IMG/VR virus record: IMGVR_UViG_2529293069_000019
Coordinates: 1 to 8,449 of that record
From: a virus
Taxonomy: Duplodnaviria; Heunggongvirae; Uroviricota; Caudoviricetes
DNA length: 8,449 nucleotides
Direction: 5' to 3' (one strand)
The stretch's first letter is position 1; each line of letters opens with the position of its first letter. A program made the position numbers. Of this stretch, positions 3,001-6,000 are shown piece after piece.

Positions 3001-6000
3001 TGCTGAAGGTACAGAAAACAAAAAATGGCATACCCTATGTTGCCGGTATTGGAGCGGGGATTGAGGATACTGATGGCTCAGCCCCTGAGCAACATACTGC
3101 TGCTGGCTGACCGTATTGCGATGATTAACCCGGAGGACGGCAACACCACGCCGTTATTTGTGGCGCAGGGGAATCAGTTGTTCATGAACGATGTGTTCCT
3201 GAAGCGGCTGTTTGCGGTGAGTATCACCTCGTCCGCCAATCCCCCGACGTTTTCCCTGACGCCGGAGGGCAGGCTGACCGCAAGAAATGCTGATATCAGC
3301 GGTAACGTGAATGCGAATTCCGGGACGCTCAACAACGTCACGATTAACGAGAACTGTCGGGTTCTGGGAAAACTGTCCGCGAACCAGATTGAAGGCGATC
3401 TCGTTAAAACAGTGGGCAAAGCTTTCCCCCGGGACTCCCGTGCACCGGAACGGTGGCCATCAGGGACCATTACCGTCAGGGTTTATGACGATCAGCCGTT
3501 TGACCGGCAGATTGTTATTCCGGCGGTGGCATTCAGTGGTGCTAAGCATGAGAGAGAGCATACTGATATTTACTCCTCATGCCGTCTGATAGTGCGGAAA
3601 AACGGTGCTGAAATTTATAACCGTACCGCGCTGGATAATACGCTGATTTACAGTGGCGTTATTGATATGCCTGCCGGTCACGGTCACATGACGCTGGAGT
3701 TTTCGGTGTCAGCATGGCTGGTGAATAACTGGTATCCCACAGCAAGTATCAGCGATTTGCTGGTTGTGGTGATGAAGAAAGCCACCGCAGGCATCAGTAT
3801 CAGCTGAATTTTATAACCCATATACGGGCGCCAGAAATGGCGCCTTTTTTATTGCAGAAAAGCGAGAGGTAATTATGCGTAAACTTTATGCCGCCATTTT
3901 GTCCGCAGCCATTTGTCTGGCCGTATCCGGTGCGCCTGCATGGGCGTCTGAACATCAGTCCACGCTGAGCGCGGGGTATCTTCATGCCCCGACGAACGTT
4001 CCTGGCAGCGATGAACTGAACGGGATTAACGTGAAATACCGTTATGAGTTTACGGACACGCTGGGGCTGGTGACGTCATTCAGCTATGCAGGAGACAAGA
4101 ATCGCCAGCTTACCCGTTACAGCGATACCCGCTGGCATGAAGATTCCGTTCGTAACCGCTGGTTCAGCGTAATGGCGGGGCCGTCTGTGCGCGTGAATGA
4201 ATGGTTCAGCGCGTATGCGATGGCGGGTGTGGCTTACAGCCGTGTGTCGACTTTCTCCGGGGATTATCTCCGCGTAACTGACAACAAGGGGAAAACGCAC
4301 GATGTGCTGACCGGAAGTGATGACGGTCGCCACAGCAACACGTCTCTGGCGTGGGGGGCTGGCGTGCAGTTTAACCCGACCGAATCCGTGGCCATTGATA
4401 TTGCTTATGAAGGCTCCGGCAGTGGCGACTGGCGCACTGACGGTTTCATCGTGGGTGTCGGTTATAAGTTCTGATTAGCCAGGTAACACAGTGTTATGAC
4501 AGCCCGCCGGTTCAGGCGGGCTTTTTTGTGGGGTGAATATGGCAGTAAAGATTTCAGGTGTACTGAAAGACGGCACAGGAAAACCGGTAGAGAACTGCAC
4601 CATTCAACTGAAAGCCAGACGTAACAGCGCCACGGTGGCCTCTGAAAATCCGGATGAAGCCGGTCGTTACAGCATGGACGTTGAGTACGGTCAGTACAGC
4701 GTCATTCTGTTGGTGGAGGGATTCCCGCCGTCACATGCCGGGACCATCACCGTGTATGAAGATTCTCAACCGGGGACGCTGAATGATTTTCTCGGTGCCA
4801 TGTCGGAGGATGACGTCCGTCCGGAGGCACTGCGTCGTTTTGAACTGATGGTGGAAGAAGCAGCGCGTCACGCAGAGGAGGCGAAGAAGAATGCCGGAGA
4901 AGCAGAGACGTCCGCGAGGAATGCCGGCATATCAGCCAGTAAGGCGGAAGCGAGCGCGGCAAATGCTGACACTTCAGCAGGGGAAGCATCGGAGTCAGCC
5001 CGGCAGGCGACGGAAAGTGCAGCCTCAGCAAAGCAGTCAGAGGAGGCGTCCTCGTCCTCGGCCTCTGCGGCCGCTCAAAAAGCCAGTGAGTCATCACAAA
5101 GTGCAGCAGATGCTGAGTTGTCAAAAAAGACGGCAGAAAGTGCAGCCGGTAATGCAGCCAGGGATGCAACGACCGCAACAGAAAAAGCCCGGGAGTCAGC
5201 AGAAAGCGCACAGTCAGCGGAACAAAGCAGGATAGCGGCGGAAGAGGCCGTAAACCGAATCCCCACGGTGGTGGGGCCTCCCGGGCCAAAGGGGGAACCG
5301 GGTCCCGCGGGTCCTCAGGGGCCGAAGGGAGATAAAGGAGAGCGTGGAGACACCGGTCCGGCAGGGGCAACCGGTGAAAGGGGGCCGGCAGGTGATGCTG
5401 GTCCGGCAGGCCCGGCAGGCCCGGCAGGCCCACAGGGACCGAAAGGAGAAACAGGTGCGGCTGGCCCGGTGGGGGCAACCGGACCTCAGGGGCCGAAGGG
5501 CGACCCGGGGGAGACGCAAATACGGTTCCGTCTGGGGCCGGGAAACATTATTGAGACAAACAGCCATGGCTGGTTCCCGGATACAGATGGCGCACTCATC
5601 ACCGGACTGACCTTTCTTGACCCCAAAGATGCCACACGGGTTCAGGGTTTTTTTCAGCATTTGCAGGTCAGGTTTGGTGACGGGCCGTGGCAGGATGTTA
5701 AGGGGCTTGATGAAGTGGGCAGTGATACAGGCAGAACAGGAGAATGACATGAACATACTAAAAAAACTTATGCAGCGTCTGTGCGGTTGCGGAAAGCATG
5801 ATGACCGTGAACACGGGGGGTTACTTACAGCACAACTGCGTCTGGGGCCGGCAGACATTCTGGAGTCAGATGAGAATGGCATTATCCCGGAGCAGGACAG
5901 GGTAATCACGCAGGTGGTGATACTGGATGCGGATAAAAAGCAGATACAGTGCGTGGTAAGACCGCTGCAAATCCTGCGTGCTGACGGGACGTGGGAAAAT

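Follow-up and report, generated by a model that had tools for sequence, protein, structure and literature searches.

The stretch of DNA analysed here (the window: 8,449 nucleotides (nt), positions 1 to 8,449 of the IMG/VR virus record IMGVR_UViG_2529293069_000019, Caudoviricetes) carries the genes J (282–3807), lom (3875–4474), a tail fibre gene, a gene for an 89-amino-acid (aa) protein with a PfC domain (5749–6018) and two nleG-family genes, in this order. The same succession is found in prophage Sp12 of Escherichia coli O157:H7 Sakai and in phage 434, and the closest matches of the fibre gene itself come from O157 and O55:H7 prophages (Sp12). The open reading frame (ORF) of the fibre extends on the plus strand from the ATG at 4539 to the stop codon at 5745–5747 and encodes 402 aa; mechanically the ORF starts at an in-frame GTG at 4533, and every annotated ortholog begins at the ATG. 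With a probability of about 0.9, we consider its product to be a trimeric side tail fibre of the EPclA type (PfN-PCoil-Col-PfC), belonging to a lambda-like siphovirus prophage of the E. coli O55:H7/O157 lineage. This architecture was defined by Ghosh et al. 2012 (PLoS One 7:e37872; PMC3368898), and all of its elements are found here: a PfN domain, a heptad-periodic Ala/Ser-rich PCoil, a single uninterrupted Col, a PfC domain and a location at the tail-gene end of a lambdoid prophage of enterohaemorrhagic or related strains. The gene and its domains are as follows:

4539–5747, plus strand: side tail fibre gene of the EPclA type, 402 aa, ortholog of Sakai ECs2231 (Sp12)
4539–4922, plus strand: PfN (phage_tail_N, PF08400) collar domain, aa 1–128
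4839–5273, plus strand: PCoil, an Ala/Ser/Glu-rich, heptad-periodic segment, putative trimeric coiled coil, aa 101–245 (from composition, periodicity, alignment to Stf and PMC3368898)
5274–5516, plus strand: collagen (Col) domain, 27 Gly-X-Y triplets, aa 246–326 (PF01391, E=1.8e-13)
5520–5744, plus strand: PfC tip, 76 aa, i.e. PF06820 on aa 328–391 (Pfam E=2.8e-35) and an 11-aa tail

The Pfam analysis confidently identified phage_tail_N in the N-terminal region (E=4.2e-62, 208.5 bits against a cut-off of 26.6), and aa 1–88 match the solved collar domain of Ur-lambda Stf (9E7M/9MGH; 9e7m_Ta) with E=2.2e-46 and a 5-residue gap in the window protein, which bears out the lambda Stf-like N-terminal anchor proposed in the preliminary description of this DNA. 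The AlphaFold monomer model of the N-domain (predicted local distance difference test score, pLDDT, 56) exhibits six strands followed by a helix, in agreement with the published description of StfN. The following segment (30% Ala, 17% Ser and 15% Glu in aa 101–245) is sparse in Leu, Ile and Val (10 in 150 residues), and its Ala and Ser positions follow a 3.5-residue period that was equalled by none of 1000 shuffles, with an autocorrelation peak at lag 7. Since the alignment of the window protein to lambda-type Stf (56% identity) reaches aa 240 and ends there, and since the heptad period is present, this segment represents the inherited, shortened proximal coiled coil of Stf and not, as had been thought, a replacement of the shaft. 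What has been exchanged is everything distal to the coiled coil, i.e. collagen and PfC have taken the place of the hinge, of the shaft resembling gp37 and of the tip that binds OmpC; a Pfam search of the fibre protein gave no match to PF03406, and the gp37-like distal shaft and OmpC tip (Pf2 repeats) are missing. The 27 Gly-X-Y triplets (one more than counted before) run without interruption, with Pro at 15 of the 27 X positions, and the block belongs to a class that has been shown by experiment to form a triple helix (PMC3368898). The collagen-like reading thus stands.

The last 83 residues (aa 320–402) are 100% identical to the tips of the short-tailed Stx2 phages phi24B, Min27, PA28 and VT2phi_272, and the tip is likewise 100% identical over these residues to the EPclB proteins (Sp5 ORF67/ECs1228, 933W L0121, phi24B gp61), with which the window fibre also shares a collagen-like shaft, an N-terminal β-sandwich with a coiled coil, and a downstream 89-aa PfC gene. 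The fibre thus has a mosaic build, with a tip module that is shared across tail morphotypes. Such sharing of tips is not new, being already implicit in the comparison of EPclA and EPclB by Ghosh et al., and the phi24B preprint draws the same relation between lambdoid lateral fibres and gp61. An AlphaFold2 model of the PfC tip, built from an alignment of 30 sequences, was too poor for a fold search (pLDDT 60.8, predicted template modelling score 0.41); it suggests a β-rich domain.

Among the relatives, the gene encoding WP_000268812.1 in O157 strain 493/89 is 99.9% identical to the fibre gene, and ECs_2231 of Sp12 in O157:H7 Sakai shows 97.4% DNA identity. The exact fibre proteins of the window, Sakai and CB9615 are absent from the protein collection that was searched, and the P0001 cluster was used in their place. 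In a set of 5,426 complete E. coli genomes, 693 possess a match covering at least 80% of the fibre gene, and genomes with any match contain a median of 2 matching places (up to 16). The same kind of fibre occurs in the classical phage 434 and in many long-tailed Stx-converting phages. ECs2231 is listed in Table 2 of Ghosh et al. as an EPclA protein of 407 aa with a PCoil of 116 aa and a Col of 81 aa (27 triplets); it is the direct ortholog of the window fibre, with the same 81-residue Col, the same three units of a nine-base repeat (see below) and the same genomic position, while the window allele has 402 aa instead of 407 owing to the deletion of five PfN residues, TVVVN. The EPclA protein studied biochemically is ECs2717 (Sp14), with 37 triplets as opposed to 27 in the window. 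It has been reported to be a trimer with the circular dichroism spectrum of collagen, melting at 42 C, in which both PfC and PCoil act as trimerisation modules and PfC renucleates the triple helix, and electron microscopy revealed a dumbbell of ~55–62 nm that is hinged where the coiled coil meets the collagen (PMC3368898). Ghosh et al. also described the differences between Col lengths as multiples of three residues (the word "slippage" is absent from their paper), and stated that these prophages can be induced and can pass on virulence genes horizontally. This class of proteins, the triple helix and the variation of length in steps of three residues have thus been known since 2012, with the direct ortholog tabulated, as befits the earlier remark that collagen-like phage fibres are known.

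The collar domain and the Ala/Ser-rich proximal coiled coil are homologous to those of (Ur-)lambda Stf, and in both systems the gene lies downstream of J and lom. In Ur-lambda, twelve StfN domains surround the gpV/gpM junction and give rise to four trimeric fibres, with flexible linkers leading into the proximal coiled coil (residues 102–393) (PMC12617516). In lambda, Stf extends further into the hinge, a distal shaft resembling gp37 and a tip that binds OmpC, and the next gene is that of the chaperone, tfa, whereas the distal part of the window fibre comprises the collagen helix and PfC, and is followed by a gene for a PfC-only paralog.

The region encoding the collagen contains one conspicuous repeat:

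5403–5431, plus strand: perfect tandem array of 3.2 copies of CCGGCAGGC, encoding (G)PA-GPA-GPA-G (Tandem Repeats Finder, 100% matches)

The preliminary description had placed three perfect tandem 9-nt units at about 5403–5435; the perfection of the array was correct, the end about 4 nt too far. When the synonymous codons of the 27 triplets were resampled according to the codon usage of the gene, a perfect threefold 9-mer arose in 0.6–1.2% of trials only, so the nucleotide identity of the units indicates a recent duplication. In the protein sequence, a run of three GPA out of 6 GPA triplets is nothing unusual (15% of order shuffles). The alignment of orthologs revealed two units in O55:H7 CB9615 and DEC5B and three in the window, 493/89 and Sakai, in identical surroundings. 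Synthetic alleles with 1 to 5 units and 60 nt of flank on each side were then compared with the 5,426 complete genomes, with the following exact matches:

1 unit: 2 records
2 units: 19 records (O55:H7 and several O157:H7 strains)
3 units: 206 records

The alleles with 4 or 5 units found no full-length, single-piece match in this survey; the high counts returned for them at the level of ">=99%" represent partial matches, the query being covered to 80% or more in only 322 records, and were set aside. The in-frame length variation predicted for this site is thus observed, with 1, 2 and 3 copies in identical flanks, and copy number is not invariant among relatives. The one-unit allele is a pseudogene in O55:H7 DEC5A (L006) and FDAARGOS_946 (L007), at about locus position 2460, where a G5-to-G6 change at the start of the collagen-coding part (AAAGGGGG to AAAGGGGGG) shifts the frame.

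The commoner paralogs of 437 aa possess 37 triplets and exhibit the 9-mer GCAGGCCCG on both sides of a block of ~90–99 nt. Deletion in silico of the 99 nt between the two GCAGGCCCG copies of the 37-triplet allele yields a gene of 1215 nt with 2 copies, the junction of which fits the natural two-unit alleles without gaps, with differences at 3 flanking single-nucleotide polymorphisms (SNPs). From this junction and from the alleles with one, two and three copies it follows that a block indel of 10/11 triplets has its junction at the 9-mer, where the series of ±1 unit is located as well. On a broader scale, the Gly-X-Y run varies from 4 to 38 triplets among 120 cluster representatives, always in frame, and one 90% cluster groups together members with 21, 25, 26, 26' (a second 26-triplet form with a different deletion) and 37 triplets. 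Each of these length forms is compatible with an in-frame deletion between repeats of the motif GPA or GPQGPKG(D/E). What is added here to the published heterogeneity is the nucleotide-level location of one length change, the 9-mer marking both the ±1-triplet series and the junction of the 10/11-triplet indel, which is a modest detail.

A second in-frame repeat indel, this time in the collar domain, is a further addition of the present analysis:

4631–4638, plus strand: site of a 15-nt in-frame deletion, marked by the one CACGGTGG copy left from the direct repeat CACGGTGGTGGTGAA/CACGGTGG (ortholog comparison)

The 15-nt unit is missing from the window and from 493/89 (hence the absence of TVVVN), is present once in Sakai and DEC5B and twice in O55:H7 CB9615. 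The five-residue segment is retained in lambda Stf and in 72 of the 72 cluster representatives that keep the N-terminus, in 69 of them as VVV(N/D) and in three with substitutions. The zero-unit allele was found in a single complete E. coli genome, 493/89. The structural model tentatively places the deletion in the β2–β3 hairpin; in Ur-lambda, the gpV/gpM contacts of StfN are made by the β4–β5 loops (PMC12617516).

The third repeat is a homopolymer in the part encoding the tip, close to the small downstream gene:

5648–5654, plus strand: T7 run in the sequence encoding PfC; if one T is lost, the fibre is joined, via the +1 frame, to the PfC paralog
5749–6018, plus strand: 89-aa PfC-only paralog of the tip, at the place where lambda has tfa (PF06820; 34% identity over 62 aa, E=4e-13)

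The 89-aa proteins form a narrow family (176 matches; the organisms among the matches listed are E. coli, E. albertii and Citrobacter rodentium), confined to prophages of these species and of Shigella, and might act as a chaperone, a spare tip or a co-assembling subunit. Pfam identified PF06820 alone in the small protein, with no match to a Tfa-type chaperone; the label "tail fiber assembly chaperone" in the phage 434 record is given there with no evidence, and another phage record (H174) annotates the small PfC gene as "alternate tail fiber tip". According to Mondal et al. 2016, who saw no frameshift signal, its equivalent in Sp5 may be a reservoir from which the tip can be varied. A candidate lipoprotein signal at the N-terminus of the small protein (MNILKKLMQRLCGCG) was rejected by eye, as it has no hydrophobic core and an atypical residue at position -2. 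No stop interrupts the +1 frame between 5617 and the start codon of the small gene, and public proteins of 494 and 527 aa correspond exactly to the product of one T lost from the T7/T8 run at 5648–5654; at least 45 contigs, complete genomes among them, encode fused proteins of these lengths with the T-run junction. Exact matches in identical flanks were distributed as follows:

GG-T7, intact frame: 521 records
G-T8, intact frame: 44 records
GG-T6, frameshifted: 1 record
G-T7, frameshifted: 0 records

As frameshifted runs amount to about 1 in 566 records in the same flanks, the fusions of the fibre with the second PfC domain are sporadic, due to mutation, decay or homopolymer sequencing error.

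A number of observations weigh against regarding the gene as that of a working fibre whose length is adjusted by slippage, and the rival explanations have to be considered together with them. As in a contingency locus, the copy number of the 9-mer differs (1, 2 or 3 units) in unchanged flanks; such a locus would also be long and hypermutable, with numerous alleles and differences inside clonal lineages, and this was not found. Because the array is short (three units) and one allele accounts for 206 records, the site can be called polymorphic, but it is no hypermutable contingency locus. Moreover, the copy-number variants reside on backgrounds that differ by 9–30 substitutions in clustered patches. 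Patches of SNPs of this kind are typical of conversion tracts, and the length differences, including the series of 1, 2 and 3 units, might be mainly the result of homologous recombination or gene conversion among the 7–14 paralogous fibre genes that the many lambdoid prophages of one genome carry, an explanation to which we would give a little less than an even chance. Paralogous fibres are indeed many (genomes with the fibre contain a median of 9 matching places), the 2-copy allele has at least two backgrounds and occupies two loci in DEC5B, and the larger indels (10–16 triplets) lie between repeated GPQGPKG(D/E) motifs. Local slippage is favoured by the change of ±9 nt at a perfect tandem array with 60-nt flanks identical on each side, which is its classic signature, and by the perfect third unit, for which the 37-triplet paralog (1 unit on the left, ~1.9 on the right) offers no donor. 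Given the SNP patches and the number of paralogous fibres per genome, gene conversion is as good an explanation of these sequences as local slippage, and the two are not separable. Of the earlier term "slippage-prone", the population polymorphism thus remains, and, as the alleles lie on mosaic backgrounds, either of the two processes may be its source. For the T run, we rejected the role of a frequent switch on the basis of the 1 frameshifted against 565 intact records. It is very improbable that the run acts as a switch at all, i.e. that loss of one T in the genome, the transcript or on the ribosome provides a fibre with an alternative tip: the open +1 frame, the fused proteins with the exact junction and the annotation in H174 would fit such a role, but the frameshifted runs number 1 (GG-T6) and 0 (G-T7) against 521 and 44 intact ones, the first PfC domain is cut mid-way by the fusion, an open stretch of ~31 codons is expected by chance in ~1 in 4 cases (our estimate), no frameshift signal was seen in Sp5 by Mondal et al., and sequencing errors in the homopolymer could mimic the records.

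The state of the prophage belongs to the same adverse side. J is broken in the window into two overlapping ORFs (282–3110 and 3025–3807) by a frame change near 3070, whereas it is intact in 493/89; from ~4100 to its end the window differs from 493/89 by 1 nt, while the middle and 3' part of J (~2250–3250) is much more divergent, and a search with the whole window revealed no complete genome closely matching its entire length. The divergent segment suggests a mosaic J and possibly a defective prophage, which, J being broken, may be unable to build a tail, the fibre gene itself being intact. Also unfavourable are the loss in the window allele of five collar residues kept by almost all relatives and by lambda Stf, the fact that related fibres do not use BamA, and the low confidence of the AlphaFold models of the tip and the N-domain (pLDDT 61 and 56), which add little. 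Hence the fibre gene might be a non-functional passenger of a decaying element and its 9-mer and 15-nt indels neutral decay; the pieces into which J has fallen in the Sakai Sp12 region (three, accompanied by nleG pseudogenes), the frameshift in the G-run of the DEC5A and FDAARGOS_946 orthologs and the restriction of the zero-unit collar allele to one complete genome agree with this. We nonetheless regard it as unlikely, since the ORF is intact over 402 codons with all indels seen in frame, inducible Stx2 phages possess the same tip with 100% identity, and the prophages are inducible according to Ghosh et al., so that an intact fibre gene could in principle still serve. Finally, Gly-X-Y proteins are also known from bacterial surfaces. 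Streptococcus Scl1/Scl2 and Bacillus BclA resemble the EPclA class in that a Gly-X-Y triple helix without hydroxylation is nucleated by a globular trimerisation domain at one end, and in that the number of repeats differs from strain to strain; BclA appears among the matches from the PDB, and one homolog (P0089) bears the source label "collagen-like surface-anchored protein SclE". These are, however, cell-surface or exosporium proteins with secretion and anchoring signals, and they match the fibre in the collagen stretch alone, with no homology beyond Gly-X-Y. The fibre protein has neither a signal peptide nor a cell-wall anchor and begins with a Stf collar domain, its gene lies between lom and the tail-fibre-tip paralog of a prophage, and an antibody against the fibre labels the tail ends in the case of an EPclB relative, so the chance that we are dealing with a bacterial adhesin of the Scl/BclA type and no phage part is next to nil. 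We thus retain the assignment to the side tail fibres of the EPclA type.

Two further groups of features were found around the fibre and small PfC genes:

4501–4522, plus strand: terminator-like hairpin and T-run between lom and the fibre gene (8-bp stem with 7 GC pairs, then TTTTTGT)
6132–6707 and 7400–8068: NleG-family type III effector genes (PF06416, E=2.5e-45 and 5.1e-48)

As this hairpin precedes the fibre gene and a search of 3800–6300 gave no sigma-70-like promoter, the fibre is presumably expressed from an antiterminated late transcript. A second strong hairpin resembling an intrinsic terminator follows J (3826–3845), so that lom is bracketed by both. The second nleG is annotated as nleG7 in 493/89, where a gene for an IS256-family transposase comes next. 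Just upstream of it, 6792–6957 repeats 5915–6089, i.e. the 3' end of the small PfC gene and ~70 nt downstream, in the same orientation but in a degraded form that contains stops and frameshifts (86% identity), which suggests tandemly duplicated cassettes composed of a tip remnant and nleG.

If the window fibre behaves like its close relatives, for which others have demonstrated the trimer, the triple helix, the coiled coil, trimerisation by PfC and docking of StfN in the collar, three chains would associate through the C-terminal PfC knob, which would nucleate the collagen triple helix, and through the Ala/Ser-rich α-helical coiled coil. The three N-terminal β-sandwich domains would dock in a 12-membered collar at the junction of tail tube and tip, giving four fibres per virion. 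The distal PfC, presumed to be a receptor-binding knob, would then touch the cell surface first and reversibly, in the way that lambda Stf touches OmpC, and the collagen rod, with a calculated length of 27 x 3 x ~0.29 nm = ~23 nm, might be a spacer setting the reach of the fibre. Direct repeats with a period of 9 nt would allow slippage or unequal recombination to add or remove whole triplets, with the reading frame and the Gly register preserved, and the CCGGCAGGC array, seen with 1, 2 and 3 copies, may be one such hotspot, if slippage is indeed the mechanism.

Fibres of this kind sit on prophages with genes for Shiga toxin and type III effectors, the two nleG genes following directly in the window, and so help to decide which bacteria receive those genes. 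One may go further and ask whether the fibre locus is built for cheap in-frame diversification at three repeats (the 9-mer for the length of the rod, the 15-nt unit for the collar and the T run for the tip), so that the pool of lambdoid prophages in enterohaemorrhagic E. coli would tune the reach and receptor specificity of its fibres by slippage. We consider this very improbable. If true, such tuning could, for instance, fit the fibre to the thickness of the O-antigen or capsule of new hosts.

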